NCBI GenBank assembly: GCA_021851895.1
Contig: JAJZQJ010000001.1
Coordinates: forward strand, 71,338 to 135,337
Length of the DNA stretch: 64,000 nt
Source of the DNA: a bacterium
GTDB lineage: Bacteria; Patescibacteriota; Minisyncoccia; Phycocordibacterales; UBA6899
Direction of reading: 5' to 3'
The translations under genes were made by a program, and so were the position numbers. Below the pieces are notes generated by a model, which worked only from the letters and a program-made list of their open reading frames with translations, was not told the DNA's origin and searched no databases. This document shows, one piece after another, positions 13,108-53,898 of this stretch; the stretch's first letter is position 1; every line of letters begins with the position of its first letter.

Positions 13108-16100
13108 CTAGAGTGCCTCTTCAGCCTTAACCTCTTCTTGCTCTGCCGGCTCGATCTCATTTGACCAGAATCCGGTACCTGCAGGAATAAGACGGCCGAG
13201 GATGACATTCTCCTTGAGCCCACGAAGATGATCCGTTGCACCCTCGACTGCGGCCTGTATGAGGACGCGTGAGGTACTCTGGAACGATGCCGCAGAGAGG
13301 AATGACTCCTTGGTAAGTGCGATATCAGTGATACCGAGCACGATACGCTCTGCAACTGCTGGCTCTCCACCCTTTGCGATGACCGCGTTGTTCTCATCCA
13401 CGAGCTCTGCCTCTTCGACAGTGTCGCTTGGAGAGAATCGCGTATCGCCAGGATTGCGCACGCGCATGCGAGAGAACATCTGGCGCACCATGATCTCGAG
13501 GTGCTTACGTGAAGTAGACACACCCTGGGTCTCATAGATACGATTGATCTCTGAGATGATGTAGCGCTCTGCTGCCATCTTGCCACCGTACTTGAACAGT
13601 GTCTCGATGTCCGCGTAACCGTCGGTCATGATCTGACCTGCGACAACAGTATCGCCAACCTTCACCTTTGGCTGACGGCGATAAGAGACGGAGTGCTCAG
13701 CTTCATTCTTACCCTTCTTGCCACCCTCACCAACGACAACGATCACGAGGTCTTCCTTGTCACCACGACGGATCTCAGCAACGACACCATCGAATTTCGC
13801 GACGGCAGCCTCTGCTTTTGGCGTCTGACGCTCAAAGACGTCCTCGACACGTGGGAGACCCATGGTGATGTCTTCTCCGACTGCTCCTCCGGCATGGAAG
13901 GTACGCATCGTAAGCTGCGTTCCTGGCTCACCGATAGCCTGAGCGGCAACGATACCCACCGTCTCTCCGAGGGCGACAAGTCGTCCGCGACCGAGGTCCA
14001 TACCGTAACACTGCTGACATACTCCACGAAGCACCTTACAAGTGAGTGGAGAGCGAACATTCGCGGAGAGTACACCCGCCTTATCTGCGGCGATAGCCTC
14101 ATCGCGCCCAAGGAGCGTACCCTTCTTGAACACGACGGTTCCATCTGGGGTAACGATATCCTTGGCGGCAACACGGCCGCGCAAAAGGCGAGAAAGTGGA
14201 ATCTCGATACCGCCTGCGTTCTCCTTCGAGAGTGCAATGCCAGAGCGATCGCCACAATCAGCCTCAGAGACGATGAAATCCTGTGCGACATCGACGAGAC
14301 GTCGAGTAAGGTAACCTGCTTTCGCGGTATTAAGCGCGGTATCGGTCATACCCTTACGTGAACCGTGCGTAGAGAGGAAGTACTCGAGTGGAGTAAGCCC
14401 CTCCTTCAGCGATGGGATCATTGGGAAGTCGATGATGCGTCCTGAAGGACCCTGGGTGAGTCCCTTCATACCAACCATCTTCGTCACCTGTCCAATCGAA
14501 CCACGAGCACCAGAAGTGATCATGTCGACGACTGGACCGTCCTTTGGAAGTCCTGCAGGGACGACGCGCTGGATAGCATTTTCGACTTCACGCCAAATCG
14601 CAATCACACCATCATACTTCTCCTCAGTTGAGAGAAGACCCTCGTTGTACTGTTCGAAAATGACTTGCTCATTACGATATGCCTCAGCAAGGATGGCATC
14701 CTTCTCTGGTGGGACATTGACGTCAGAGAGTGACCAGGTAATACCTGACTTCGTGACGTACTTATATCCGAACGCCTTCACCTTATCGAGCACATCTGGT
14801 GTCGCGTCGACACCATACTTCGTGAGAAGATCGTCGACGAGATTCGAGAGATCCTTCTTGGTGATCTCCTTGTTGATATAAGGAAAATCCTTTGGAAGCA
14901 CTGAGTTGAAGAGCAGGCGGCCTGCGGTCGTCTCGAATGGCTTACCACCGAACATTGCATACTTAGGACTCGATGATGGCATCACCACGATCTTCGCACG
15001 GAATCCAACGATGTTGAAGTCGTATGCAGTGATCGCTGAATTTGGTGATGGGAAGATCTTCCCTTCACCCTTATCGCCATTGATGATCTTTGTCATCCAA
15101 TAGCAACCGAGGACGATGTCCTGTGATGGATTCACCACTGGATCACCTGAACCTGGCTTCAAGAGATTCTTGTTCGACGCCATGAGCTCACGTGCCTCCG
15201 CCTGAGCCTCATCGGAAAGCGGAACGTGCACGGCCATTTGGTCTCCGTCGAAGTCAGCGTTGAAGGCTGGCGTCACGAGCGGATGCACCTGAATAGCATT
15301 TCCCTCAATAAGTATTGGCTGGAATGCCTGAATACCAAGACGATGGAGCGTTGGTGCACGATTCAAGAGAACATACTTTCCCTTGATCACCTCTTCGAGA
15401 TTTGCCCACACCTCCGGAATACCATCATCGATGAGACGATTTGCACCACGGATGTTGAATGCGAGCCCCTGCTCGATAAGCTTCGCGATCACGAACGGAC
15501 GGAAGAGCTCGAGCGCCATGTGCTTTGGAAGTCCACACTGGTGGAGCTTGAGATCTGGACCAACGACGATGACTGAACGGCCAGAGTAGTCGACACGCTT
15601 TCCAAGGAGATTCTGACGGAAGAGACCGCCCTTACCCTTCAACATGTCTGCAAGACTCTTGAGCTCACGCTTGCGCGCTGGGCTTGCTGCCTGGCTCGCA
15701 GTCGAGTGACGGATCGAGTTGTCGATAAGTGCATCGACAGCCTCCTGGAGAATACGCTTCTCGTTGCGGAGAATGACTTCTGGAGCATCGATCTCAAGAA
15801 GCTTCTTGAGACGATTATTACGATTGATGACGCGACGATAAAGATCGTTCACATCACTCGTCGCATGACGGCCTCCCTCAAGTGCGACCATTGGTCGTAC
15901 TCCTGGAGGAATCACCGGAAGCACCGTAAGGAACATCCACTCTGGGCGTACCCCTGAGCGAAGCATTGCCTTGATAAGCGAAAGACGCTTATAGAGCTTC
16001 GGACGGTCAGTTGCATTTGCCTTCTCGAGACGCTCTTCTACCGCCTTCTTGTAATCAGCGATATTCATCTTCTTGAAGAGCTCGTAGATCGCTTCTGCAC

Positions 16101-37045: not shown

Positions 37046-38451
37046 CCAAGTAATTTTGTGAATATTTCTCCAAGCAATTTCGGATTTCCGGAACCTTTCA
37101 TCGCTTTCATGCCCTGTCCAACAAAGAACATCAGGAGTGAGGTCTTCCCTGCACGATATTCTGCGGCCTGCGACGGATTCGCCGCAATGATCTCGCTCGC
37201 AACACGCTCGATCTCTCCAAGGTCACTTTTTTGGATAAGACCATTCTTCTCTGCGATCTCGCGCACAACGCCACCTTCGCGATAGGCGATCGTCAATGTA
37301 TCCTTCGCGCCACGCGAAGAGAGTTCATTTGCGCCGATCATGGAAACTAGATCTATGAATGTCTTTGCGCTTAACTTAAGTGGCAACACTGGCTCCGCCT
37401 TGATCAAACTCACAAGGTCAGTCGAAATATAGTTCGATGCAAGTTTTATTGCGGCAGCATCACCCGAAAGACCGGCAACCACTTCATCGAAGAGCTTTCC
37501 AAGCGTATCATCTGAAACGTAGATCTCAACGACCTTCGCATCGATACCGAGGGCGAGCAAGCGCTCTCGTTTTTCCCAAGGCAACTCAGGGAGCGGTGCG
37601 AGTTTCTCATAGTTCTTTCCAAAAACCTCTGTACAGACGAACTTTGGAATATCTGGATCAGGGAAATAGCGGTAATCGTTAGCTGATTCCTTCTTTCTCT
37701 GACTGAACGTCTTCCCCGTACTCTCATCCCAACCTCTGGTTTCTTGTATGATCTTTTCACCCGCCTCTAAAGCTGCTTCTTGTCGTGCCATTTCATATGC
37801 AATAGCAGCGCCCGCAGCACTAAATGAATTGATATTCTTCACTTCGACTTTCGTACCGAACTTATCGGTCTTTGAAATCGAGATGTTGACCTCAACACGC
37901 ATCTGGCCCTTCTCCATGTTCGCTTCAGAGGCACCAAGTGTTCGAAGCAAAAGCTGTAATTCTTTACCAAAACGCATAGCGGTCTCCGCATCGTGGATGA
38001 CCGGCTCTGTGACGAGCTCCATCAAAGGAACGCCAGCGCGATTGTAGTCGACGACAGAGAAATCGCCCATATCATGACGGGAGGATCCTGTATCTTCCTC
38101 AAGATGGATTCGGGTAAGTGCGACTCCTGCAAGGCTTCCCCCAGAGACGAGTGGATACTTATATTGTGTTATCTGATAACCCTTTGGAATATCAGGATAG
38201 AAATAATTTTTTCGATCCCACTCAGTGAAATCTGCGAGCTGTGCTCCGATAGCCTTCCCTACGCGCAATACCTGCTCCACTGCGGCCTCATTGACCACGG
38301 GGAGCGTGCCTGGCTGGGCAGTACAAACAGGACAAATATTCGTATTTGGCGTCTCTTCATCAGGATCGTTCTTGCACGAACAAAACATCTTTGCACGTGT
38401 GTTAAGCTCGGCATGTATCTCAAGACCAATGGTTGCGCGATATTCAGACAT
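37042..38451 (-). CDS. gatB: Asp/Glu-tRNA amidotransferase subunit B
   Basis: MSEYRATIGLEIHAELNTRAKMFCSCKNDP... and C-terminal YqeY/GatB domain. The conserved start is at the internal Met (38451). Confidence 0.9.
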   Translation of the reverse strand: MSEYRATIGLEIHAELNTRAKMFCSCKNDPDEETPNTNICPVCTAQPGTLPVVNEAAVEQVLRVGKAIGAQLADFTEWDRKNYFYPDIPKGYQITQYKYPLVSGGSLAGVALTRIHLEEDTGSSRHDMGDFSVVDYNRAGVPLMELVTEPVIHDAETAMRFGKELQLLLRTLGASEANMEKGQMRVEVNISISKTDKFGTKVEVKNINSFSAAGAAIAYEMARQEAALEAGEKIIQETRGWDESTGKTFSQRKKESANDYRYFPDPDIPKFVCTEVFGKNYEKLAPLPELPWEKRERLLALGIDAKVVEIYVSDDTLGKLFDEVVAGLSGDAAAIKLASNYISTDLVSLIKAEPVLPLKLSAKTFIDLVSMIGANELSSRGAKDTLTIAYREGGVVREIAEKNGLIQKSDLGEIERVASEIIAANPSQAAEYRAGKTSLLMFFVGQGMKAMKGSGNPKLLGEIFTKLLG

Positions 38452-38528
38452 ATTGGGAGTATAGCATAAGCCTCGCACAGTTCACAATCAGCAGAAAGCA
38501 TACTATACTATACAACAAGATATCAACC

Positions 38529-38942
38529 ATGCCATACATAAATGAGATAACAAACTGGAAAAGGACACTCGACGGTCTTTATCACATCACACTGCCGAAA
38601 CAAATAACCGTTGCGAATGCGGTGGACATTTGGGCGCAGATATTCAATGACTATTCTGAACATTTTGCTGGTGCGGGACCACTGCTTGTCATCGTTGATG
38701 GCTCAAAAGTGGAAAGTTACGACGAACGCGCACTTTCCATCTCCTCGCTTCACGTCATACCGAATAACACTGAGGCGCTCATCGCGATACACAGTCGCTC
38801 TCCACAATACAGGAAGATATCGAATGATTTCTTCCGCACACATCCGATGCCAAATAATATGCGCTACTTCGATGATGAGCTTTCTGCGCGAGCATGGCTC
38901 GAACTTGTACTTGAAGACTACAATAAACGCATTCACTTATAA
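38529..38942 (+). CDS. Hypothetical protein (137 aa)
   Basis: ORF MPYINEITNWKRTLDGLYHITLPK... with no recognised motif. Confidence 0.4.
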   Translation: MPYINEITNWKRTLDGLYHITLPKQITVANAVDIWAQIFNDYSEHFAGAGPLLVIVDGSKVESYDERALSISSLHVIPNNTEALIAIHSRSPQYRKISNDFFRTHPMPNNMRYFDDELSARAWLELVLEDYNKRIHL

Positions 38943-38976
38943 AAAAATACATGGCCTTCCATGTATTTTTTTATAT

Positions 38977-39690
38977 TCATTTCGAGAGATCCTCAAGTAC
39001 GCAAACACCATGACCCTCAGGTTTGACATCACGATAGATGCGCTCGATGATACCATCGGGACCAACGACGAACGTCGTTCGCTTATTGAAGAGTCCTCCC
39101 CAGACACCGCAAGCCTTTGCGAATGCGTGCCCCTCATCAACGAGAAGCGGAAATGCGATTTGCTCCTTCGCAATGAAATGCTCATGACTCTCCAGGGAGT
39201 CAGGTGAAACACCATAGATAGCAACCCCCTGCAAAGAGAACTCCGCAGCGAGCTTTGAGAATTCATGCGCTTCTGTAGTGCATCCTGATGTCTCATCCTT
39301 TGGATAAAAGTAAAGCACGAAGCGAGTGCCCAGAAGTTCATCCAACGAAAGTGTTCCTCCGTTTGTCGAAAGCATTGCAAAAGGCGGCAATGGACTTCCA
39401 ATATCAAGTACGTTCTTTTGCGATGGTACAATGGCTTTCTTATCCAACGCCACAGGCTTCACTGTCTTCACCCGTGGAGACGGCTTCTTTTTCGAATCAC
39501 GAATCACCGTCTTCTTTGCCACCTTTGCTACTTTTGTCTTTTTTGCAGATGACGACTTCGTTAATGTGCGTTTCTTCGCAACAGACTTCTTCGCAAGACT
39601 TGTTTTCGAAGTAACACGCTCGACAACGAGCTTCGTTGGCGGACGCTTTTTCTTTTCTACGTGACGAGTAACGGTGAGTTTGATAGCCAT
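38977..39690 (-). CDS. bcp: Peroxiredoxin Bcp (thiol peroxidase) with ~90-aa lysine-rich N-terminal extension
   Basis: FVLYFYPKDETSGCTTEAHEF (peroxidatic Cys in the PxxxT/SxxC context), AhpC/TSA fold. The N-terminus is KKxx/AKK repeats (TKLVVERVTSKTSLAKKSVAKKRTLTKSSSAKKTKVAKVAKKT). Confidence 0.85.
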   Translation of the reverse strand: MAIKLTVTRHVEKKKRPPTKLVVERVTSKTSLAKKSVAKKRTLTKSSSAKKTKVAKVAKKTVIRDSKKKPSPRVKTVKPVALDKKAIVPSQKNVLDIGSPLPPFAMLSTNGGTLSLDELLGTRFVLYFYPKDETSGCTTEAHEFSKLAAEFSLQGVAIYGVSPDSLESHEHFIAKEQIAFPLLVDEGHAFAKACGVWGGLFNKRTTFVVGPDGIIERIYRDVKPEGHGVCVLEDLSK

Positions 39691-39783
39691 GATATTACTT
39701 TAATCCATTAAGCTTAAAGTAGTATAGCACAAAGAATAATGAACGTGCATGATTTTATAGTATCAAAATGAAAAACCGCCAAT

Positions 39784-40764
39784 TTAGGCGGTCTTTGCGG
39801 CGCGAAGTTTCGCAATAAGCATATCCCTGAACGTCTTTATCGACGCATCATCAATGATGGAGATCGCGTAAACTTCTCGCCCAAGTGACGCGAGCGCGGC
39901 TTTCGCAGAATCTACTGTCGCTTGATCAACGAGATCTGTCTTGGTGAGCAATATGATCTCATCTTTTTCAGGCAATCCATTACCGAATTGCTCGAGCTCA
40001 TTACGCATCGTTTTATATGCACCAACAACGTCCTCATTCTCGAGCGAGATGAGATGGAGAAGCATCTTCGTGCGTGAGACATGACGAAGAAACTTGATTC
40101 CTAAACCCCTACCCTCTGCAGCACCTTCAATGAGTCCAGGAATATCAGCAAGGACATATCCATAGAAAGCACCGAGATTCGGCTCGAGTGTCGTGAATTG
40201 GTATGCACCGATCTTCGCAGTTGCATTTGTGAGCTCATTAAGCAAAGAAGACTTTCCCGCATTTGGGAAACCAAGGAAGCCAACATCGACAACAAGCTTG
40301 AGTTCGAGATGAACCTCTGATTGTTCACCCGGCTTTCCAGGAGTTGCCTTATCAGGTGAACGATTTGTTGCGCTCTTAAAACGCTCGTTACCGAGTCCAC
40401 CTCGCCCACCTTCAAGTATGAGCATCGGCTCATCTTCAGTTATCACGTCAAAGACCTTACCAGAATCGAGCAAGGTGACCACGGTACCTACAGGGACAGG
40501 AAGGATGAGATCCTCTCCGTTTCTCCCAAAGAGTGAGTCGCGTCCACCATCGACGCCTCGCTCTGCATGAAACTCCTTCTGGTGTCGATATTTGTAAAGC
40601 AAGCCGAGATCTCGCGATCCGACGACATACACACTGCCACCGTTTCCACCATCTCCACCTGAAGGACCAGCGAATTCCTTTCCTTTTTCGTGACGCCAAC
40701 GGACAACACCGTTCCCACCGTCACCCGCCGCCATATGTATTGTCAATTCATCAACGAATGCCAT
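39784..40764 (-). CDS. obg: GTPase Obg/CgtA
   Basis: Glycine-rich Obg fold (MAAGDGGNGVVRWRHEKGKEFAGPSGGDGGNGGSVY) and G domain (GFLGFPNAGKSSLLNELTNA...DIPGLIEGA). Confidence 0.92.
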   Translation of the reverse strand: MAFVDELTIHMAAGDGGNGVVRWRHEKGKEFAGPSGGDGGNGGSVYVVGSRDLGLLYKYRHQKEFHAERGVDGGRDSLFGRNGEDLILPVPVGTVVTLLDSGKVFDVITEDEPMLILEGGRGGLGNERFKSATNRSPDKATPGKPGEQSEVHLELKLVVDVGFLGFPNAGKSSLLNELTNATAKIGAYQFTTLEPNLGAFYGYVLADIPGLIEGAAEGRGLGIKFLRHVSRTKMLLHLISLENEDVVGAYKTMRNELEQFGNGLPEKDEIILLTKTDLVDQATVDSAKAALASLGREVYAISIIDDASIKTFRDMLIAKLRAAKTA

Positions 40765-40867
40765 AAAAATGATTTAAGATAGAACACCGCGCAGGCGGCG
40801 TATGCGTAATGGCGACAAAATAACACGAAAAAATAGTTTTGTCGAGTAAACATTGCGGCAATTATCG

Positions 40868-41803
40868 CTATCCTATAGCGATCTTCGCAAGCGCGAGCGC
40901 AGCGTCTTTTGTTTTCGCAATTGCAAGAAAACCCTTCTTGTGACAAAAGATACTCCCCTCTACTCCCGTCATCCTCTCGAGTTCCTCGCCCATGAGGCCA
41001 TACCAAGACAGCGGTAGTGGTCTCCTCGTAACGAATGTTGTGATATCGCTTCTGACCGCCTCAACTCTCCATTGATATACATCTGGCGAGAGGACCTGCG
41101 GAGAAACAACGTAGAGTGGTTCTGTATATTTCGATAACTCAGCCTCCCATGGAAGATCTTTGTCGAGAACAATGATACGTTTATCCTCGGTTTGATCATA
41201 AACAGCACGCACGAGACGTGCACCCTCTTGTTCATCCTTTGCGATCGTAAGCTCACGCTCCATGAAGCGTTTCGCAAGTGGAAGCAATTCCGAGAAAAGC
41301 ACATCGGCGTTTATACCCGCGTCCTTCTCCTTCCACGTAGGGTGAAATGCGAAGACGATGTGATGAAAAAGAAGCGGTCGTACGTTAGGGAATACTGGTT
41401 CATAAAGATTGAGTCCATTGTCTCCTGCGTCTACAGGATATGCGATCTTCTGTTCGATCGCATTCCAGGAAAAAATATTTCCATCACAAAGTTCGAGACC
41501 GAAATGCTTCCAGATCAGGCCGAATGATGAATATGGAATACCATCACGCTCCCCTACGCCCTCGCGCTGATGATGATCAAATCGCCCCGATGATGCATCG
41601 AGTACACCTCCGACGTCACACACGATATCACCGCCATCAATGACCTTCTGGTCCCGGGAGCGAACGACGACAGCAGAAAGTCCCTCCCGCTCAAGAAAAA
41701 TCTGCAAGGTTGCAACTGCAAGTAACTCATCAGCATGGAAAGAACCTGAATGCGTCACGATGCGCACAGGACGGTCGTGAGGAAGTGGACATGGAGAATT
41801 CAT
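40868..41803 (-). CDS. MYG1/UPF0160-family metal-dependent hydrolase
   Basis: IVTHSGSFHADELLAVATL (the family's THNGxFHxDE motif) plus conserved DHHQ. Confidence 0.7.
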   Translation of the reverse strand: MNSPCPLPHDRPVRIVTHSGSFHADELLAVATLQIFLEREGLSAVVVRSRDQKVIDGGDIVCDVGGVLDASSGRFDHHQREGVGERDGIPYSSFGLIWKHFGLELCDGNIFSWNAIEQKIAYPVDAGDNGLNLYEPVFPNVRPLLFHHIVFAFHPTWKEKDAGINADVLFSELLPLAKRFMERELTIAKDEQEGARLVRAVYDQTEDKRIIVLDKDLPWEAELSKYTEPLYVVSPQVLSPDVYQWRVEAVRSDITTFVTRRPLPLSWYGLMGEELERMTGVEGSIFCHKKGFLAIAKTKDAALALAKIAIG

Positions 41804-41894
41804 GAATCCATTATACGCGAGCAGAATAGCACGTCTATGGTCAGCAGATGATCGTTTACATGGTATACTATATATACATTAATATATCTTCAAC

Positions 41895-42407
41895 ATGGAA
41901 TTCACAATATTATTAGGGACAGCAAGAGAAGGAAGACGATCAGAGCAGGTCGCACGTTTCGTCGAGAAAACACTCACAAGCGAAGGTCATCAAGTCGACT
42001 TCGTTGATGTTCGCGATTATCTCGACGTAACCTCAAAGATGGGTGGTGCACCCCTCTCCGATCCCATAGGTAGCAAGTGGAGAGAGATCGTCGCGCAAAA
42101 GAAAACACTTATCATCGTTTCACCAGAATATAATCATAGCTATCCTGGTGAGCTCAAGCGTCTGATCGATGCAGCATACCCGGAATACAAAGGAAAACAT
42201 GTTGGCATTATCGGTGTCTCTATGGGCCCCTTTGGTGGTGCGCGCATGATAGAGCAGTTGCAGCTCGTCCTTGTTGCAGTTGGTGCACTTATGCCACGAT
42301 CAGGTATGATCTTTCCTTTTGTACAGGAGCTCTTTGACGACGGAGGCGAGATCAAGGATCCGGCATATAAAGACAGGGTGATCAACTTTATCAAAACATT
42401 CGACTAA
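41895..42407 (+). CDS. NAD(P)H-dependent FMN reductase family protein
   Basis: MEFTILLGTAREGRRSEQVARFVEKTL...LIIVSPEYNHSYPGELKRLID is the flavodoxin-like FMN_red signature. Confidence 0.75.
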   Translation: MEFTILLGTAREGRRSEQVARFVEKTLTSEGHQVDFVDVRDYLDVTSKMGGAPLSDPIGSKWREIVAQKKTLIIVSPEYNHSYPGELKRLIDAAYPEYKGKHVGIIGVSMGPFGGARMIEQLQLVLVAVGALMPRSGMIFPFVQELFDDGGEIKDPAYKDRVINFIKTFD

Positions 42408-42433
42408 CCCATAAGTGTCATGTTCGTTTTGTC

Positions 42434-42802
42434 GTGTATACTATCATCATGATGAAATTACTTGTGAAATGGGCAACACTAACTGTTGCGATCTATATAC
42501 TTGCGACGTACACTCCGGCGATGACGATCACCGAACCCAAGGTCGCTGTCTACGCCGCGCTCGCACTCGGTTTACTGAACGTACTTGTTCGCCCTATCCT
42601 CAAATTACTCGCCCTTCCGATCACACTCATCACATTCGGACTATTCTCACTTGTTATAAACGGATTCATGCTGATCATCGTTCCCCGCTTTGTTGACGGC
42701 ATCACCGTCAATGGATTCTGGTGGGGTGTCATTGGTGCAGCATGTATCAGCATCATCACATCGTTCTTCAACCATCTCCTTCTTGGGTCAGACGATCGTT
42801 AA
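42434..42802 (+). CDS. DUF360 / phage-holin-4-superfamily small membrane protein
   Basis: 4 TM segments; LVRPILKLLALPITLITFGLFSLVINGFMLIIV is characteristic of the family. Confidence 0.6.
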   Translation: MYTIIMMKLLVKWATLTVAIYILATYTPAMTITEPKVAVYAALALGLLNVLVRPILKLLALPITLITFGLFSLVINGFMLIIVPRFVDGITVNGFWWGVIGAACISIITSFFNHLLLGSDDR

Positions 42803-42811
42803 ATAAAAAAA

Positions 42812-43693
42812 TCACTCAGCAAGAGTGATTTTTTTATTCTTCGCGATCAGAATACCTTCCCGTATCAATTCATCGACAGCCTCTTTGCCGCTGTATGGGG
42901 TATCATGAAAAACAGCCTCAGCACGTGCGCGTGAACAAGTGTGGTCACGTACGAGCATTTTGAGTAATGCTCCCCTATATGATCGCTTCGAGCCCTTAAA
43001 TTTCGATTGGGGTTTCTTATATACGAAATCTTCTACCTCTCCATGAAAATCAAACATTGGACAGGCCGGACTATGCCTTCGTGCGGTACATACCATTGCC
43101 CCAAGATCGAGCATCGCATAATTCCAAGCACGACCACGCCCCTTCGGTATCATAGAAGTTGCGAACGCAAAAAGTTCCCTATCGGATGGTATCCTTCCAT
43201 CAAAAAATGCACGAACGAGGATCCTCCGGAGATTCGTATCGATCATGGGGTATGGATCATTCCATGCAAATGCCATGATCGCAGCAGCAGTTGATGCTCC
43301 GATACCAGGGAGACGCTGCAAGGCGTTGAAGTCTCGCGGAAATATGCCTCCATGTTCATCAACGACCGCCCTTGCGGCGAGATGCAAGTACTTCGCGCGA
43401 CGATTGTAGCCGAGTCCAGACCAAAGCACGAGGACAGAAGAGAGCGGAGCTGTGGCAAGTGTATGCACATCCGGGAAACGTTCGATGAATGCTGCGAATT
43501 TCTCTCGCACACGATCGACCTGCGTCTGTTGTAACATGATCTCGGAGACAAGAATGCGATACGGATCGAGCTTCCCCTTGAATTCACGCTTCTTTGGTCT
43601 CCAATCCATCGCACGATACGTGGTATCACTCCAAGAAAACAATATTTCGTTAAATTCTTCGATGCGGTTGTTCACCAGCACAGCATAACCCAA
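42812..43693 (-). CDS. HhH-GPD base-excision glycosylase with 4Fe-4S cluster (MutY/Nth family; no NUDIX C-domain)
   Basis: ILVSEIMLQQTQVDRV, helix-hairpin-helix LQRLPGIGASTAAAIMAFAW, catalytic D (YPMIDTNLRRIL) and a Cys cluster (CTARRHSPACPMFDF). Confidence 0.75.
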   Translation of the reverse strand: MGYAVLVNNRIEEFNEILFSWSDTTYRAMDWRPKKREFKGKLDPYRILVSEIMLQQTQVDRVREKFAAFIERFPDVHTLATAPLSSVLVLWSGLGYNRRAKYLHLAARAVVDEHGGIFPRDFNALQRLPGIGASTAAAIMAFAWNDPYPMIDTNLRRILVRAFFDGRIPSDRELFAFATSMIPKGRGRAWNYAMLDLGAMVCTARRHSPACPMFDFHGEVEDFVYKKPQSKFKGSKRSYRGALLKMLVRDHTCSRARAEAVFHDTPYSGKEAVDELIREGILIAKNKKITLAE

Positions 43694-43763
43694 GAATCAT
43701 GGAACGCAAATGTAAAACAGGCACGTATCCGTGCCTGCTACAGTATGTTTCTTCGATCCGTCA

Positions 43764-44051
43764 TTATTGTACCGGAGATGTCGTCGTTGGTGCGACCGGT
43801 GCCCCGCCGACAGGCGCTACACCGTTTGTGCCCATGCGTCCATCTGGACGGGCATATGCACGTCCATCGCGGCCTGCAAAATTGCCACCGAAGTTCCCAT
43901 CACGAAGCTGTGAGAAATCACGGCCAGCCATGTCACGGAAATCTCGCTCATGGTGACTCAGTGCAAACCCAGACAAACCGCCGAGTAGGCCACCAAGCAC
44001 AAATACGGTGAGCAGAAGCAATCCGACCTTCTTATCGATATGGAGATCCAT
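43764..44051 (-). CDS. Small membrane protein with Gly/Arg-rich tail
   Basis: One TM helix (VGLLLLTVFVLGGLLGGLSGFAL), then GRDFSQLRDGNFGGNFAGRDGRAYARPDG. Confidence 0.4.
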   Translation of the reverse strand: MDLHIDKKVGLLLLTVFVLGGLLGGLSGFALSHHERDFRDMAGRDFSQLRDGNFGGNFAGRDGRAYARPDGRMGTNGVAPVGGAPVAPTTTSPVQ

Positions 44052-44132
44052 AGATAAAAGTTAGCGTATAACTATGCATAAGCATATTACGTACACGATA
44101 CAATATATGGATGAAGAACGAGTGAAGCTGAT

Positions 44133-44414
44133 TTAAGGAGCTATAGGCAACGCATTATCCGTGTTTTTCGCATTTCCCCCTGGCTTCTTGAGATTTCTCT
44201 TTGAAGCTCGTGCTTTCTTTGTCGGGTGTTTCTTGCGATGCTCAACGAGCGAACTATCGGAACTACCCTCTATGAATGTCGTTTTGTTCGATCCGATATC
44301 GTGCATCTTAGATACTGATGCCGCAAGAGCGGAATTACTGAATCCGAGTGCACCCAAACCAAATGCAGTAACCATCACCATCGTGGTGAATTTTTCTCTT
44401 TTGTATGGTCTCAT
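44133..44414 (-). CDS. Small secreted basic protein (start uncertain)
   Basis: Signal-like MRPYKREKFTTMVMVTAFGLGALGFSNSALAA; K/R-rich C-terminus. Confidence 0.3.
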   Translation of the reverse strand: MRPYKREKFTTMVMVTAFGLGALGFSNSALAASVSKMHDIGSNKTTFIEGSSDSSLVEHRKKHPTKKARASKRNLKKPGGNAKNTDNALPIAP

Positions 44415-44559
44415 CGTTATATATCTTAAACTTATAAGACGTGCGCTCATTGCATGTAGCGCAACGATCACCAAACATATCTCATGCCCGCATGGGCAAT
44501 CGATAATTAAAAGTATAAGTTGACCACATGAAGCAAAGATGAGCCCTTAAAGGGCTCAT

Positions 44560-45708
44560 CTAGGCTATAGGAAGACCGATATGCACCGTTGTCCCCACAC
44601 CCTCTTCACTGTCGATATGCACCGTGCCGCCATGCCCTTCGATGATCTGCCTCACGATCGGTAACCCCAACCCTGAACCAGAACCCTCATTACGAGAATG
44701 CGAAGCCTTGTAGAATCGATCAAAGACGAAAGGCAAATCTTTCTTTGCAATACCCACTCCAGTGTCGGAGATACTGATCTCGTAATTATTTCCCTTGATC
44801 TTCGACTTCATGGTGATAGTGCCACCTGCCATCGTATAATTTATTGCATTCTGCAAGACGTTCTGAAAAGCACGTTCAAGCTGATAGCGCTCTCCGCGCA
44901 CGAGCCCATCAATGATCTCCACATGAACAAGTTCGATTGCTCGCCCTTTCGCTTGAGATTCGAATTTCTTCGCAAGCCTCTCAAGGAGATCGCTTATGCG
45001 CACAGTCTCAAAAGTCGAACGATCAGGAAGCTCTTCAGTGCGCGCCATAACAAGAAGATCATCAACAAGCTTCGACATGCGATCGATCTCCTCGAGGTTA
45101 CTTTTGAGTACTTCTTTGAACTCAGTATGATCGTGCGAACCTGTATGCAAAAGCACTTGCGACTCACTTTTCATTATAGCGAGTGGCGTACGCAGATCAT
45201 GAGATGCATCTGCGAGAAAGCGCTTTTGGATGGCGATATTCTCTTGTATCGGCTTCAACGTCCTTCCGGCAATGATATAGCCGAGCAGCGCCACCAAAAA
45301 GAGGAGCACGCCGTCAGCGAGTATGATATTATGCTCGAGATCATCTACGGTACGGCGAAATACGAGAAATCGATTCATTGTAACTCCGGAATGTACCCGA
45401 GGAAGACGAAGGGCCTTCGGTGGAGGCGTCGGTTGCACGGGTGGAGAAGCAAGATCATCAGAAAGTGATTTCGTCGCATTGCTGATGATTGAAAGCTCGT
45501 CGGGTATCATGAACTCATCAGCGACGACCATTCGTGTATTCCGTTCCAATGAAATAAGGAGGGCTATACTGAAAAGTCCGATGATCGCCATAGTGATCAC
45601 CGTATAGAAGATCGTCAGCCGTATGCGCGCGATCTCGAAAGGACTCCTCTTTAATTTACGCCTTAAGGCGGTAACCCACCCCGTGAACCGTTTCAAATAA
45701 TGTTTCAT
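44560..45708 (-). CDS. Sensor histidine kinase (2 TM - HAMP - HisKA - HATPase_c)
   Basis: LADASHDLRTPLAIMKSESQVLL; ISDTGVGIAKKDLPFVFDRFYKA...GSGLGLPIVRQIIEGHGGTV. Overlaps the upstream RR gene. Confidence 0.85.
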   Translation of the reverse strand: MKHYLKRFTGWVTALRRKLKRSPFEIARIRLTIFYTVITMAIIGLFSIALLISLERNTRMVVADEFMIPDELSIISNATKSLSDDLASPPVQPTPPPKALRLPRVHSGVTMNRFLVFRRTVDDLEHNIILADGVLLFLVALLGYIIAGRTLKPIQENIAIQKRFLADASHDLRTPLAIMKSESQVLLHTGSHDHTEFKEVLKSNLEEIDRMSKLVDDLLVMARTEELPDRSTFETVRISDLLERLAKKFESQAKGRAIELVHVEIIDGLVRGERYQLERAFQNVLQNAINYTMAGGTITMKSKIKGNNYEISISDTGVGIAKKDLPFVFDRFYKASHSRNEGSGSGLGLPIVRQIIEGHGGTVHIDSEEGVGTTVHIGLPIA

Positions 45709-46327
45709 GTTTATGCTGAAGCTTCTTGCGGAGATTCTTTATATGTACATCGACCACATTACTTAAGCCATCATATGCGAAATCCCAAGCATGACCAAGT
45801 ATCTTCTCTCTGGTCAAAGCCTCATTTGGATGTCGCATGAATTGTTCGAGTATTGAAAACTCCTTCGCGGTAAGTGAAATTTCCTTACCCGCGCGTGTTA
45901 CAATGCGCGTGATCGGATTCAATGTAATACCGCGCACTTCTATCTCGGAAACAAACTTCTCCGTAGGGCGCCTAAGCAACGCTTGCACGCGCGCAGCGAG
46001 CTCTGGAAAATCGAAGGGCTTCACAAGGTAATCATCTGCGCCGATATTCAGTCCTTCTATCTTGTCGTCGAGTGCATCCTTTGCAGTCAACATGATGATC
46101 GGCAACGTTGCACCCTTCTCTCTCAGCGTACGACAAATATCCATGCCATCCATCCCTGGAAGCATGCGGTCGAGTATGATGAGGTCATAATCACCATAGT
46201 CGAATTCGAGGCGACGCATGGCCTCACCGCCATCATGGATCATATCCACAGCATAACCATAGTGCTCAAGTCCTTTTTTGACCGAGCGCGCCAACTTTTC
46301 CTGGTCTTCGATGATAAGTATTCTCAT
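45656..46327 (-). CDS. OmpR-family response regulator
   Basis: MRILIIEDQEKLARSVKKGL...DLIILDRMLPGMDGMDICRTLR...LTAKDALDDKIEGLNIGADDYLVKPF plus winged-helix C-terminus. Confidence 0.9.
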   Translation of the reverse strand: MRILIIEDQEKLARSVKKGLEHYGYAVDMIHDGGEAMRRLEFDYGDYDLIILDRMLPGMDGMDICRTLREKGATLPIIMLTAKDALDDKIEGLNIGADDYLVKPFDFPELAARVQALLRRPTEKFVSEIEVRGITLNPITRIVTRAGKEISLTAKEFSILEQFMRHPNEALTREKILGHAWDFAYDGLSNVVDVHIKNLRKKLQHKHETLFETVHGVGYRLKA

Positions 46328-46446
46328 ATCCTTAACTATGTATTATGAGAATGAAGATATCATGAACACTATCATTCTCATCTTACGTTCAGCATACTGC
46401 ATAAATCATGTAACGCAATATGGGCCATAGGGCCCATATTTATGCA

Positions 46447-46905
46447 TTACTCCACAATGACTGTCCCCTGATCTTTTGGAGAGAGATGATTATGGTAGTT
46501 CCATGACCCAGCGATATCGAACTTAAAACTCCAAGATTCTCCAGGAAGGAGCCCTCTACATGCATCAAAGGTACTTCCGATACAACCACCTGTCGTAGGA
46601 TACTCCCTATGGGTAGGATGTACGCCAGAAGCCGGCCACATGCTTTGACTACTGTTGTTTACGAAAGTCACCTCTGTTCCTGCTTTCACGCGCAAAGGAT
46701 CCGGTGAAAATCCTGTATCTGAATAGACGATGGTCGAAGAAGTTGCCGGCGGCTGCACTGCGTTTCTATTTTGCTGCACTTCAGCTGATGGAGCATTCGT
46801 CTGAGGATGCACCGCGGTCTTATTGCCATTATCGCGCACATAAGAAAATACGACGATACCAACCAAGACAAGAGTAATGACTACAATGAGCGCATATTTA
46901 TTCAT
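46447..46905 (-). CDS. Secreted cupredoxin-like protein
   Basis: Signal/TM anchor, VKAGTEVTFVNNSSQSMWPASGVHPTH...WNYHNHLSPKDQGTVIV (His-rich, Greek-key-like). Confidence 0.4.
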   Translation of the reverse strand: MNKYALIVVITLVLVGIVVFSYVRDNGNKTAVHPQTNAPSAEVQQNRNAVQPPATSSTIVYSDTGFSPDPLRVKAGTEVTFVNNSSQSMWPASGVHPTHREYPTTGGCIGSTFDACRGLLPGESWSFKFDIAGSWNYHNHLSPKDQGTVIVE

Positions 46906-47278
46906 GGTAGTGGAAAAGTTTATATGCGATAGGCTCTGGTAAAGACTCCATCATGAGTGCAAGTGCTGCAGCCAAGATAGCGATATCGCGAACAGTGATA
47001 TCAGTAATGCCACTCACCACAAGAACGAAAAATACATGGAGCGCACCTACCGCAGCGGCAAGCGGAATGACCACACCGAGCGCGAGCAATGCGCCGATGA
47101 CGAGATCAAGCACGCCGACACTGAGCATCATGGGCTCCATCGCAAATGGAATGAGCTTCTCTGCCCAAGGCTGCATATAGCTTCCCCACATTGCAGGTTG
47201 CATGATGATCAATACACCGATCCAAAGAAATGTTACCGCGAGCCCGATACGCAGAATATGTAAGGGTATCTTTTTCAT
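46898..47278 (-). CDS. Small polytopic membrane protein (DoxX-like)
   Basis: 4 TM helices; overlaps the downstream gene by 8 nt. Confidence 0.4.
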   Translation of the reverse strand: MKKIPLHILRIGLAVTFLWIGVLIIMQPAMWGSYMQPWAEKLIPFAMEPMMLSVGVLDLVIGALLALGVVIPLAAAVGALHVFFVLVVSGITDITVRDIAILAAALALMMESLPEPIAYKLFHYHE

Positions 47279-47373
47279 GTTACTTAACTTATGTATAGTA
47301 TTATAACGCGACTATTTGCTTTGGCAAAGAAAATAGGATAATAAAAAACCTGCACATGCAGGTTTTATTATGA

Positions 47374-47793
47374 TCATTCTGAAACCGTAAGCGTACCCCA
47401 CTGACCCCCTGCTCTATGTCCAGGCTTTGAACAGTAGTACACGAAACTTCCCACCTTGTCTGCAATGAACTCCACAACGACTTCCTGATTCAAGGGGAGT
47501 TCCTTCTTGATCCCATATTCATCGATAGTGAAATCATGCATTCCCGCAGTGTTCGTGATCTTCACGCGAACGAGATCCCCCTTCTTGACCGACATCTCTT
47601 TGAGTGAATACCATTTCCCTTTTGCGTCATAGTATGCGGTCATGGAAAATTCTTTGACCGGAGCAGTACTTGCGACACTTGCCTTTGTCTCATTAGCGCC
47701 TGATGGAGAAACTGCCTGTCTGCTCCGCAATGCAAAGTATCCACCGATAACAACGAGTATGAGCAGTGTGAGCACTGTATTTCTTGAATTCAT
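47374..47793 (-). CDS. Blue-copper (type 1) cupredoxin, plastocyanin/azurin-like
   Basis: Signal anchor; copper ligands in the canonical spacing, H..(N)..YYCSKPGHRAGGQWGTL (Cys-x2-Pro-Gly-His...Gln/Met). Confidence 0.6.
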   Translation of the reverse strand: MNSRNTVLTLLILVVIGGYFALRSRQAVSPSGANETKASVASTAPVKEFSMTAYYDAKGKWYSLKEMSVKKGDLVRVKITNTAGMHDFTIDEYGIKKELPLNQEVVVEFIADKVGSFVYYCSKPGHRAGGQWGTLTVSE

Positions 47794-48309
47794 GTATGTT
47801 ATATTGATTGTTATTTTCCCAAAATTTCGATTTCAATGACTGAAGAGCACTAACGTATTATACCTGAGAGATAGTAAATATCACGAGCATGGCTCGTGAT
47901 ATTTGGAGATACGGGGAGAATCTCACGTCGCGATGCGGCGACACGGCTCACAAAGTATCTTGCTCCACGTATTCGCAAGATGCTAAGTGGCCGTCGTCAC
48001 GACTCGCGGCCTCGAAGACTCGGCATCGCTCCGTCTCGCTCAGGGGAAAATGCTCCGCATTTTCTTTCTCCCTTTGCGCCCCAAAGGGGCCCGCACGGCA
48101 CTGCTCCTCTATCTCCTTACAGGAGCTGTACACCTTTTGGATCTTTTGTTTCGAAGACTCACAAAAGTTCTCAAAAGGTCTTGCGCTCTCGCTCCCATAA
48201 GAATGGGACCCATGTGCGAGAGCTCACCCACGGTTCCTAACGCTTTCTTTGAAGACGAAGAAAGCTGTGCTCCTCCACGGGGAACCTCCCCGTTCCCCGA
48301 CCCCTTCGA

Positions 48310-48395
48310 CGTTCGAATCCCCGCGACTCCGCAAAAACAAAAAATGAACAAGCATTCTTGTTCATTTTTTGTTTTTGCGGAGTCGCGGGGATTCG
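48310..48395. repeat. Perfect ~42-bp-arm palindrome formed by an inverted copy of the tRNA-Ser 3' end plus trailer
   Basis: GTTCGAATCCCCGCGACTCCGCAAAAACAAAAAATGAACAAG cattc CTTGTTCATTTTTTGTTTTTGCGGAGTCGCGGGGATTCGAAC; the right arm is the 3' T-loop/acceptor of the tRNA gene itself. Confidence 0.8.
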
Positions 48396-48464
48396 AACCC
48401 CGGATGGCTGTTACACCATACTCACTTTCCAGGCGAGCGCACTAGACCACTATGCGACGACTCC
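48378..48464 (-). tRNA. tRNA-Ser (anticodon GGA), type II with long variable arm
   Basis: GGAGUCG-UC-GCAU-AGUGGUCUA-GUGC-G-CUCGC-CUGGAAA-GUGAG-UAUGGUGUAACAGCCAUC-CGGGG-UUCGAAU-CCCCG-CGACUCC-G; 87 nt, CCA not encoded. Confidence 0.9.
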
Positions 48465-48820
48465 AATATTATCTCCAACTTAACATATACAAACCAAATT
48501 TCGCAATGCAACAAACTCTAATCGAAGTGAGCATAGTGTCTACCCGAAAGAGCAAGAGCGTAGCTATTGCTTGAGTTGCTCTGTGTCGCGGAGGCGACAC
48601 CTTATCGGGCAAGACCGCCTGGTCCGCATTATTATGCGGCGGTCTTATGCGACGACTCCTTTTGAATTTTTATCTTAACATACCGAACCGAAGAATAACA
48701 ATACCCTCTATAAATGCACATCGCGAATCCGAGTCCGAAATTTTTGTATTGGCATTTACCCTACTCCCTATTCCCTATACCCTATCCCCATGTATTTAGC
48801 ATCATGCTATACTTCCTATC

Positions 48821-49213
48821 ATGAACTTCATAGACTGGGATGAAAGCTTCAGCGTCGGCATCGACCTGATAGATAATCAACACAAAAAACTGTTCGATAC
48901 CATCAATAATTATCATAATGAACACAGCGATACTGAGGAATCGCTCAATAAACTCCTCGCTTACATCGATTTCCACTTCACGACCGAGGAAGATTATTTT
49001 AGAAAGTTCAATTATGAAGATGCTATCGAGCATACCGCTCAGCACCTTCGCTATAAGGATGAGATCAACAAGCTCTATACGCAATACCATTATAAGAATG
49101 ACGATGAAAAAATACGTGCGGAGCTCGAAGAATTCATAAAGAACTGGATCACCCATCACATAAAAATAGCCGACAAACAGTACGCCGAATGCTTCAAAGA
49201 GCATGGACTGTGA
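48821..49213 (+). CDS. Bacteriohemerythrin
   Basis: WDESFSVGIDLIDNQHKKLFDTIN...H...E..YF...H...H...WITHHIKIADKQY matches the H/E/D iron-ligand pattern of hemerythrin-like domains. Confidence 0.8.
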   Translation: MNFIDWDESFSVGIDLIDNQHKKLFDTINNYHNEHSDTEESLNKLLAYIDFHFTTEEDYFRKFNYEDAIEHTAQHLRYKDEINKLYTQYHYKNDDEKIRAELEEFIKNWITHHIKIADKQYAECFKEHGL

Positions 49214-53151: not shown

Positions 53152-53898
53152 CTACTTCTTCTTGCCCCCCTTCTTGCCGCCCTCTTCCTGCTTCTTGCCG
53201 CCGCCGACCCCGATCTTGCCGGGGTACAGCGCGGCACGGCTCATCTGGTTGGCGCGCTGCCTGCTCTCGCGAGCCTTGCGCTCCTCGGCCTTATCGGCCT
53301 CGGACTCCGGGCCAGCGACGCGCCGGTAGAGCGTCAGCGGCTGATGGAGCTCAGGGTGGAACAGGACCAGCTGGCCGACGTTCTCGGCCTTGACGATGAA
53401 CCCGCAGCTGACCCACTCCTCATTGCTGAGGTGGTGCTTCAGCTCGGACTCGATGACCTCGCAGGTGGAGGTGATGATCGCGGGGACCTTCGTGCCGGTC
53501 GTCTTGATGGCGACGAGCACCTGGACCTTCTCGGTGAAGTAGGCCTTCGCCCCGAGGAGCACAGCCGCGCGCAGGAGCGCACTCATGCGCTTGCCGCGCT
53601 TCTCCACGTTGTCGGCCTTGAGGTTACCGAGGACGAAGTCGTGCTGCACGACGAGGAGCTTCTCGGGAATCTCCCGGGGCGCGTAGCGCGCCAGGTCCCT
53701 GAAGACGAACTCGGGGAGGAGGCCATTCTCGATGAAGAGATCGGCCGCCTCGGAGAACTTGTGCTCCTTGAGCAGCTCCTTGAGCGTCTTGATGTTGGCG
53801 TCGAACTTGTCCGGGCGCACGAACGACGGGGGCTTGGGCCCCTGCTTCTTGCTGGTCTTGTCGGTGGTGGCGGCCGGAGCCGAGGCCTGGGTGGCCAT
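53152..53898 (-). CDS. Hypothetical protein encoded in GC-rich islet (248 aa, K/G-rich C-terminal tail)
   Basis: GC-rich with strong GC3 bias, unlike all neighbouring genes. GAGGTG sits 5 nt upstream of the ATG. The protein is non-repetitive, whereas the opposite-strand ORFs read as L/E/G/R junk. C-terminus GGGKKQEEGGKKGGKKK. I recognise no family. Confidence 0.5.
   Translation of the reverse strand: MATQASAPAATTDKTSKKQGPKPPSFVRPDKFDANIKTLKELLKEHKFSEAADLFIENGLLPEFVFRDLARYAPREIPEKLLVVQHDFVLGNLKADNVEKRGKRMSALLRAAVLLGAKAYFTEKVQVLVAIKTTGTKVPAIITSTCEVIESELKHHLSNEEWVSCGFIVKAENVGQLVLFHPELHQPLTLYRRVAGPESEADKAEERKARESRQRANQMSRAALYPGKIGVGGGKKQEEGGKKGGKKK

Follow-up and report, generated by a model that had tools for sequence, protein, structure and literature searches.

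The attachment (att) sites of T-loop-class tyrosine integrases run from the T-loop of a transfer RNA (tRNA) gene past its 3′ end, and the non-coding RNAs GOLLD and ROOL are associated with tRNAs. Other described systems that one might consider beside a tRNA gene are bidirectional intrinsic terminators between convergent genes, quasipalindrome correction by template switching, fold-back inverted duplication, the REP/BIME class of palindromic repeats, and free-standing GIY-YIG genes. Here, we compare these systems with the tRNA-Ser(GGA) locus of an uncultured Paceibacteria bacterium (candidate phyla radiation, CPR; Patescibacteria), using sequence comparison. The locus lies in a stretch of 64,000 nucleotides (nt) of contig JAJZQJ010000001.1, which we will call the window. 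It comprises the tRNA gene, a long palindrome that repeats the tRNA 3′ end in inverted orientation, a 136-nt element upstream (element U) that begins with a copy of the tRNA 5′ end, and a G+C-rich block of hairpins downstream, toward a cupredoxin gene. The original prediction had read it as a possible integration or rearrangement scar, with a long terminator and a structured non-coding RNA as the alternative.

The locus resembles a T-loop-class att site in that a partial tRNA copy running from the T-loop to beyond the 3′ end lies beside the tRNA gene; here, however, the copy is inverted and 44 nt off, it tracks the tRNA, the flanks are syntenic, and no element or integrase was found beside the copies. 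The palindrome core has the layout of bidirectional intrinsic terminators, and relatives keep its complementarity, but in this case complementarity goes on for 22 nt inside the tRNA and, in the opposite arm, within a copy that has no gene, giving a perfect 42-bp stem without an added U-tract. Quasipalindrome correction and fold-back duplication offer a mechanism that perfects and extends inverted repeats and so would explain arms that evolve in concert; for this lineage we can only infer it, and the mechanism alone does not explain a constant T-loop boundary.

Like GOLLD and ROOL, the block is a several-hundred-nt, multi-hairpin and partly variable non-coding region adjoining a tRNA gene, but it has no Rfam match at E <= 10, is smaller, lacks a prophage context, and is built of modules that differ between close relatives. 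Like REP/BIME sequences, it is a mosaic of intergenic palindromic units with extra copies in nearby intergenic regions of relatives; unlike them, it is not dispersed in the 64-kb window, and its units are much longer, mutually dissimilar and strongly constrained. The free-standing GIY-YIG genes have their counterpart in a distant relative (L024), where repeats end at nt 14 of tRNA-Ser(GGA), the boundary of the 5′ copy in the window, whereas the window and its relative L028 have no open reading frame (ORF) there and carry the conserved 136-nt element instead. A literature search found nothing specific.

We lean toward regarding the locus as a genuine, conserved tRNA-Ser(GGA) cassette with a self-matching, extended bidirectional terminator and an unclassified structured element on either side, and as neither an integration site nor an artefact. 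Among the readings considered, the alternative offered in the original prediction comes closest to the evidence. The cassette would consist of the tRNA gene, a two-way terminator (A-tract, hairpin and T-tract) and, beyond the terminator, a copy, in inverted orientation, of the final ~22 nt of the tRNA, by which the terminator stem would be extended to 42 bp.

The tRNA-Ser(GGA) gene occupies positions 48377-48464 on the minus strand (ARAGORN; Rfam RF00005, 54.9 bits), does not encode its CCA, and is the sole tRNA within the 64-kb window. The palindrome predicted next to it, with arms of ~42 bp, is indeed there: it spans 88 nt (48311-48398) and has perfect 42-nt arms at 48311-48352 and 48357-48398 around a CATT loop, as found by inspection and by repeat search. 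Each arm holds ~22-23 nt of the tRNA 3′ end, counted from the T-loop, and ~20 nt of trailer. The far arm begins with the inverted partial copy GTTCGAATCCCCGCGACTCCGCA (48311-48333, plus strand), which extends from the T-loop to the 3′ end and lies 44 nt from the tRNA; it is also present in L001, an assembly of the identical strain, where the sequence continues differently.

The terminator-like core at 48333-48376 can be read from the sequence as AAAAACAAAAA-ATGAACAAG-CATT-CTTGTTCAT-TTTTTGTTTTT, that is, an A-tract upstream of the hairpin ATGAACAAG/CTTGTTCAT and a T-tract downstream of it, and it can putatively act as an intrinsic terminator in both directions. A simple consensus terminator scan did not list this core because its A+T-rich stem has fewer than three G-C pairs. 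On the other side of the gene, the proximal promoter and leader would lie at 48465-48523 (minus strand), with TTGCGA and TTAAGT separated by 17 nt; the promoter scan did not report this pair, and the site rests on a reading of the sequence. A counterpart, TTGCTAAATTCG..TACAAT, is found in two relatives (L029 and L030).

Five related loci were examined. L028 (Logan DRR125231) and L029 (NCBI GCA_035583355.1, Candidatus Paceibacterota) have cupredoxins 81% identical to that of the window and the same tRNA-Ser(GGA) gene (100%). L030 is a close relative on a JGI contig (cupredoxin 92%, tRNA 97.7%), and L013 is a distant one (cupredoxin 52%). L028 and L029 each carry on a single contig the MFS, DZR and MerR genes, a 184-aa gene, hemerythrin, tRNA-Ser(GGA), a block homolog and cupredoxin, and the order of hemerythrin, MerR, DZR, cupredoxin and the two-component system flanks is unchanged in both. 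The order in L013 is LemA, M48, tRNA-Ser(GGA) and, further along, cupredoxin.

The window combines an A+T-rich terminator core with perfect arms and a perfect inverted copy. In L029, the terminator is GCAATACAAAAAAGAGCAAG / CTTGTTCTTTTTTTGTATTGC, another sequence yet still self-complementary; its inverted copy is perfect, and a single mismatch and a single indel interrupt its palindrome as a whole. The terminator hairpin of L028 is G+C-rich and its inverted copy has 3 differences, and L030 has its own terminator and a degenerate inverted copy, with the entire tRNA cassette in the opposite orientation. In L013, the tRNA 3′ end differs from that of the window at ~7 positions, and the downstream copy (GCGGAGAGGAG, a 23-nt insert, then AGAGGATTTGAA) matches L013's own tRNA and has the same T-loop boundary. 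The terminator cores of L029, L028, L030 and L013 are thus analogous to that of the window, different in sequence with their self-complementarity kept. Because the palindrome architecture is kept in all four, the unit of tRNA, terminator and inverted T-loop-to-3′-end copy persists through sequence change and inversion. No other tRNA in the loci compared has such an inverted 3′-end copy.

Two points on L030 should be mentioned. Its degenerate copy might be thought the relic of a complete, convergent twin tRNA gene, an idea that found no support, as the sequence past the T-loop has no significant tRNA similarity (local score 4; 3910/5000 shuffles reach 4). In addition, the M8-N junction of L030 recurs in the second block copy of L029, which argues against a one-step inversion as the origin of the L030 orientation.

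As to how the cassette came about, we propose that a fold-back (inverted) duplication spanning the terminator hairpin gave rise to the far arm, and that template switching or gene conversion within the palindrome would keep it matched to the selected tRNA arm. Conversion of this kind would let the far arm track the tRNA sequence in distant lineages without a function of its own. If the copy does track the tRNA in this way, the locus offers a natural case of concerted evolution driven by a terminator hairpin. On either side of the cassette, element U (upstream, on the tRNA strand) and the ~430-nt block (downstream, between the terminator and the cupredoxin promoter) would be lineage-specific non-coding elements under purifying selection.

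Element U begins with the direct copy of tRNA nt 1-14 (GGAGTCGTCGCATA), which a repeat search places at 48646-48659 on the minus strand. The original prediction was right about the copy and 2 nt off in its position, which it gave as 48648-48661. The start-to-start spacing of tRNA and copy is 195 nt, and the similarity extends to 37 nt at 76% into promoter-like sequence upstream, where a weaker 23-nt repeat lies at 48660-48682 (minus strand). In a 64-kb window, an exact 14-nt match is of borderline significance (BLAST E = 0.17), and the search turned up an unrelated 14-mer match too; the copy is validated by its exact conservation at the -195 offset in L028.

The nested hairpins noticed upstream of the tRNA form a single structured RNA candidate, element U, of 136 nt (48524-48659, minus strand). 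It closes into a three-way structure in which a stem pairs the duplicated 14 nt of the tRNA with U's own 3′ end. In L028, 127/136 positions are identical (93%), as against 56-64% at third codon positions, and the adjoining promoter region is visibly less conserved. The nine differences fall in loops or unpaired positions except for two in a stem, which give G.U on the minus strand only, a comparison of 2 sequences. Read as the minus strand, U folds better than shuffled sequence in the window and in L028 (z = -4.4 and -2.9), whereas for the plus strand the excess is smaller or absent (z = -2.7 and -0.7). U is absent from L029, which has a 110-aa ORF in its place, and from L030; a covariance model of U run over 35 sources (381 kb) found only the window, L002 (another assembly of the identical strain) and L028.

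The downstream block was predicted to be G+C-rich and poor in ORFs, and both properties hold. Its G+C content (47897-48310) is 52-58% versus a window mean of 48.7%, a moderate excess. A coding region can be set aside: the four ORFs of the block have no Pfam match, and its homologs differ by indels that are not multiples of three, one of which, of 4 nt, disrupts every reading frame. Compared with shuffled sequences, the block folds with z = -8.6 on the plus and -7.6 on the minus strand. Fold z-scores and an alignment of homologs describe it as a mosaic of hairpin modules at 47905-48310: M1 (47905-47942), M2 (47942-48041), M3 (48042-48075), M4-M6 (48076-48245) and motif X (48226-48310), which comprises the end of M6, M7 and M8.

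In an alignment of five homologs, M1 is shared with L029 and L031, M2 with L028 and L031, M4-M6 with L029, and motif X with L029 and L030. Identity in the shared modules is 92-97%, while the flanking genes reach only 48-63% at their third codon positions. For the window and L029, the figures are 91.8% for M4-M6 and 96.6% for M8 plus the inverted copy. In the M2 helix, 4/17 pairs have changed on both sides and 95.6% of cells are paired, and its covariation score is 0.269 versus 0.149 for shuffled alignments, with 2/500 shuffles reaching 0.269, values that come from only 4 sequences. M4-M6 show many broken pairs among homologs, and M7 is a hairpin whose place between conserved linkers is constant while its sequence varies. 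Block homologs were not found at the more distant cupredoxin loci (L004-L027, L033-L037).

The original prediction had called for an Rfam scan of this region. No family accounts for the block: at E <= 10 the scan returned only the tRNA, for the window and for the homolog loci alike. The best non-tRNA matches were palindrome-driven miRNA and sRNA models far below threshold and tmRNA_permuted at 23 bits against a threshold of 47. Transfer-messenger RNA (tmRNA; one-piece or permuted), the signal recognition particle (SRP) RNA, 6S, RNase P, GOLLD, ROOL and riboswitches are thus without Rfam support, and ARAGORN finds no tmRNA. A tmRNA at the plus-strand end of the block was also considered and discarded, as there is no G3.U70 pair and no local T-arm.

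We think it most likely that the block is transcribed as one or more structured RNAs. A possible transcript on the plus strand would start at the symmetric -10 (47856-47862) that it would have in common with the cupredoxin gene and end at the shared terminator; another would arise by read-through from the tRNA. U (136 nt), M2 and motif X are conserved, unclassified structured RNA candidates; since streamlined CPR genomes retain little non-coding DNA, they deserve a family-level search. Over the predicted -35 of the cupredoxin promoter lies a perfect 13-bp palindrome, AAATATCACGAGC / GCTCGTGATATTT (47876-47904), which is recognisable in the window and L031 only and is a possible operator candidate. 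As a separate observation, the cupredoxin 5′ untranslated region and promoter (window 47794-47904) are highly conserved in 5/5 relatives (TTTCCCAAAnTTTCGATTTCA), with an invariant symmetric -10, TATTATAC/GTATAATA.

Several points weigh against the cassette as we have described it and should be kept in mind. Five related loci make a small sample, and the neutrality of the conversion is an assumption; in the window and in L013 alike the copy stops at the T-loop, and in L030 it has moved with the cassette, which may mean that selection acts on the pairing. For the block, the strand cues conflict, since G.U pairs favour the plus strand in M2 and the minus strand in M5, M6 and the closing helix, and z-scores are alike on both strands in the window and its homologs. 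No module is common to all five relatives, and some hairpins have the length and perfection of young DNA palindromes; the mosaic fits a repeat or spacer region as well as it fits an RNA gene. Lastly, three public assemblies of the identical strain break at the palindrome with conflicting contig ends, and the different continuation of one of them (L001) after 48343 may mean that the block end is present twice or that a structural variant exists.

The alternative that survives best takes the block as a spacer made of palindromic DNA modules (REP/BIME, MITE-like or operator arrays) that spread and recombine locally, with the tRNA fragments as neutral debris, and we judge it somewhat unlikely. The presence/absence mosaic of modules, in which each genome has its own hairpins, speaks for it, as does the nearly equal folding of the two strands. 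Relatives carry a second partial block copy one gene away, upstream of the HAD and M16 genes: in L029, motif X occurs again between the cupredoxin and M16 genes, with 94% identity to window 48226-48310, and in L031 a second M1-M2 copy upstream of the HAD gene is 90% identical to the window, which is thus nearer to it than to the first L031 copy (69%). L024 adds a pseudo-tRNA 5′ half interrupted by G+C-rich hairpins. Against it, the shared modules are far more conserved than third codon positions, M2 has compensatory changes (4 sequences), and a variable hairpin at a fixed place between conserved linkers, such as M7, is typical of RNA; moreover, the 64-kb window holds no second copy of the block.

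A second alternative, which we consider unlikely, keeps the cassette and replaces neutral conversion by function: selection at the RNA level would act on the pairing of the tRNA 3′ end with the downstream segment, either because the 42-bp duplex in read-through transcripts is cut or degraded (e.g., by RNase III) or otherwise insulates the cupredoxin operon, or because units beginning with GGAGUCG (U, the tRNA and the minus-strand block) serve as tRNA-like punctuation and are cut from one precursor by RNase P. The L013 copy, matched to the local tRNA with the same T-loop boundary, and the L030 copy, which has stayed with the inverted cassette, both speak for it. Perfect copies go with weak A+U-rich cores (window, L029) and degenerate ones with stronger G+C-rich cores (L028, L013), a correlation drawn from five genomes. 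U and the minus-strand block do start with GGAGUCG and pair to their own 3′ ends, the pairing being kept via G.U in L029, but the block of L028 shows no such closing helix. On the other hand, the tRNA would be damaged if its own T-arm and acceptor strand were tied up in a duplex, and the extended stem brings no gain for termination since no U-tract follows it. If the copy is selected nonetheless, it points to an unknown tie between the tRNA 3′ end and a downstream RNA.

This second alternative can be carried further, to a proposal that we regard as improbable. U, the tRNA and the minus-strand block would be three consecutive units on the tRNA strand, each starting with the GGAGUCG of the tRNA-Ser acceptor, and U and the block, folded onto their own 3′ ends, would be undescribed structured RNAs of the CPR with tRNA-mimic ends, which RNase P or RNase Z would cut out of a common precursor. 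Selection, and not neutral conversion, would then maintain the stretch complementary to the tRNA 3′ end.

Returning to the conserved cassette, the question raised by the original prediction was whether the tRNA copies are att remnants and the block leftover foreign DNA, and this we find highly unlikely. The 3′ copy does begin in the T-loop and extend beyond the 3′ end, like many tRNA att sites, and the G+C content of the block is raised. The copy is, however, adjacent and inverted, not distant and direct, so that the att reading of it is already largely refuted. No integrase is among the recorded Pfam hits of the flanks examined, ~11 kb on the left (L001) and 13.5 kb on the right (L002), where several genes have no Pfam hit and no integrase-specific search was made. 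Gene order, the flanks that the original prediction had called accessory included, is the same on both sides in L028 and L029, and no presence/absence polymorphism of a flanking island was encountered, L013 keeping LemA, M48, the tRNA and, further along, cupredoxin.

The block itself is conserved in relatives and has no match in phage, plasmid or viral collections; blastn against phages and plasmids and five exact-motif scans of viral contigs came back empty. The 33-nt junction and the 26-nt M8 motif were unmatched in a JGI metagenome collection that lacks even L030. The likeness that had been drawn between the block and other G+C-rich islets did not hold for the one islet examined (53152-53898), which reads as a protein-coding ORF and is unrelated to the block. 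The direct 5′ copy brackets just 181 nt without an ORF, and the window at U has neither a GIY-YIG-type ORF nor similarity to GIY-YIG. Local duplication or rearrangement did produce the partial tRNA copies, which are real and not random, and rearrangement is the part of the original prediction that finds partial support, in the inverted cassette of L030 and the GIY-YIG gene of L024; integration finds none. Partial tRNA copies beside a tRNA gene need not signal the integration of a mobile element, and here they would be part of a conserved cassette.

The locus of L024 (4034-4396) also speaks for integration. In this distant relative, a GIY-YIG gene (Pfam E = 1.3e-16), a low-G+C ORF of 90 aa, lies exactly between a 14-nt 5′ copy and the tRNA. 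The flanking 25-nt direct repeats consist of 11 nt plus nt 1-14 of L024's own tRNA-Ser(GGA); past nt 14, the upstream copy runs on through tRNA nt 15-37, with two G+C-rich hairpins breaking into it. The arrangement looks like a tRNA-targeting mobile cassette, and it may be taken as a lead on the origin of U. GIY-YIG genes also adjoin tRNAs in L008 (806-1033 and 1773-2000) and L022 (11833-12018). The two tRNA-Ser genes of L008 (610-698 and 1579-1665) have identical downstream sequence, a tandem duplication of tRNA plus GIY-YIG, and ARAGORN gives one of them the anticodon ACT; in L027, two tRNA-like calls at 882-1196 have 2-nt and 4-nt anticodons.

Foldback chimeras can create palindromes of this kind, as the original prediction had warned, and the assemblies of the identical strain should be looked at individually. 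L001 (ENA, 119 kb) is 100% identical to window 37374-48343 and then diverges over 48 nt (L001 1-48); this tail, which includes AAAAACAAAAACCCCCTTGCGGGGG, has a terminator unlike that of the window and, in reverse complement, the 3′ end of another tRNA. L002 (NCBI GCA_027330905.1, 224 kb) and L003 (Logan) match the right side of the window and end within the palindrome, L002 in a 102-nt perfect foldback (13439-13540) that reaches 7 nt deeper into the tRNA sequence than the left arm of the window. Short tips at the palindrome, a duplicate of the block end or a structural variant may lie behind the L001 tail and the L002 foldback. A chimeric window was also considered, as the proteins of its right side at first had no public match; they were unmatched because the public gene calls start at other codons or lie on the opposite strand, and the synteny of L028 and L029 disposes of the idea.

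In spite of these three contig ends, it is scarcely credible that a foldback chimera, or a misjoin at a short inverted repeat, produced the palindrome, because the independent L029 and L028 span the locus with the same architecture in a diverged but still self-complementary sequence, L001 independently shows the block joined to 33 tRNA-like nt, and the CATT loop is oriented alike in the window and L002. The 88-nt perfect palindrome can thus be taken as a genuine genomic feature that is a repeated breakpoint of short-read assemblies.

Some neighbouring features complete the description. The ORF at 53152-53898 (minus strand) encodes 248 aa, has ~68% G+C and no Pfam hit, and was called coding from the appearance of its sequence alone; it was probably acquired horizontally, and the public gene calls give a 207-aa ORF on the opposite strand in its place. 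The hemerythrin gene lies at window 48821-49213 on the plus strand (Pfam E = 3.7e-10), where the public gene calls of the identical contigs have a 140-aa ORF on the opposite strand. Between the cupredoxin and a 126-aa gene, L028 (5496-6758), L029 (5695-6957), L031 (937-2781) and L032 (475-2380) carry an M16 peptidase gene, together with a HAD hydrolase gene in L031 and L032; the window has neither of the two.

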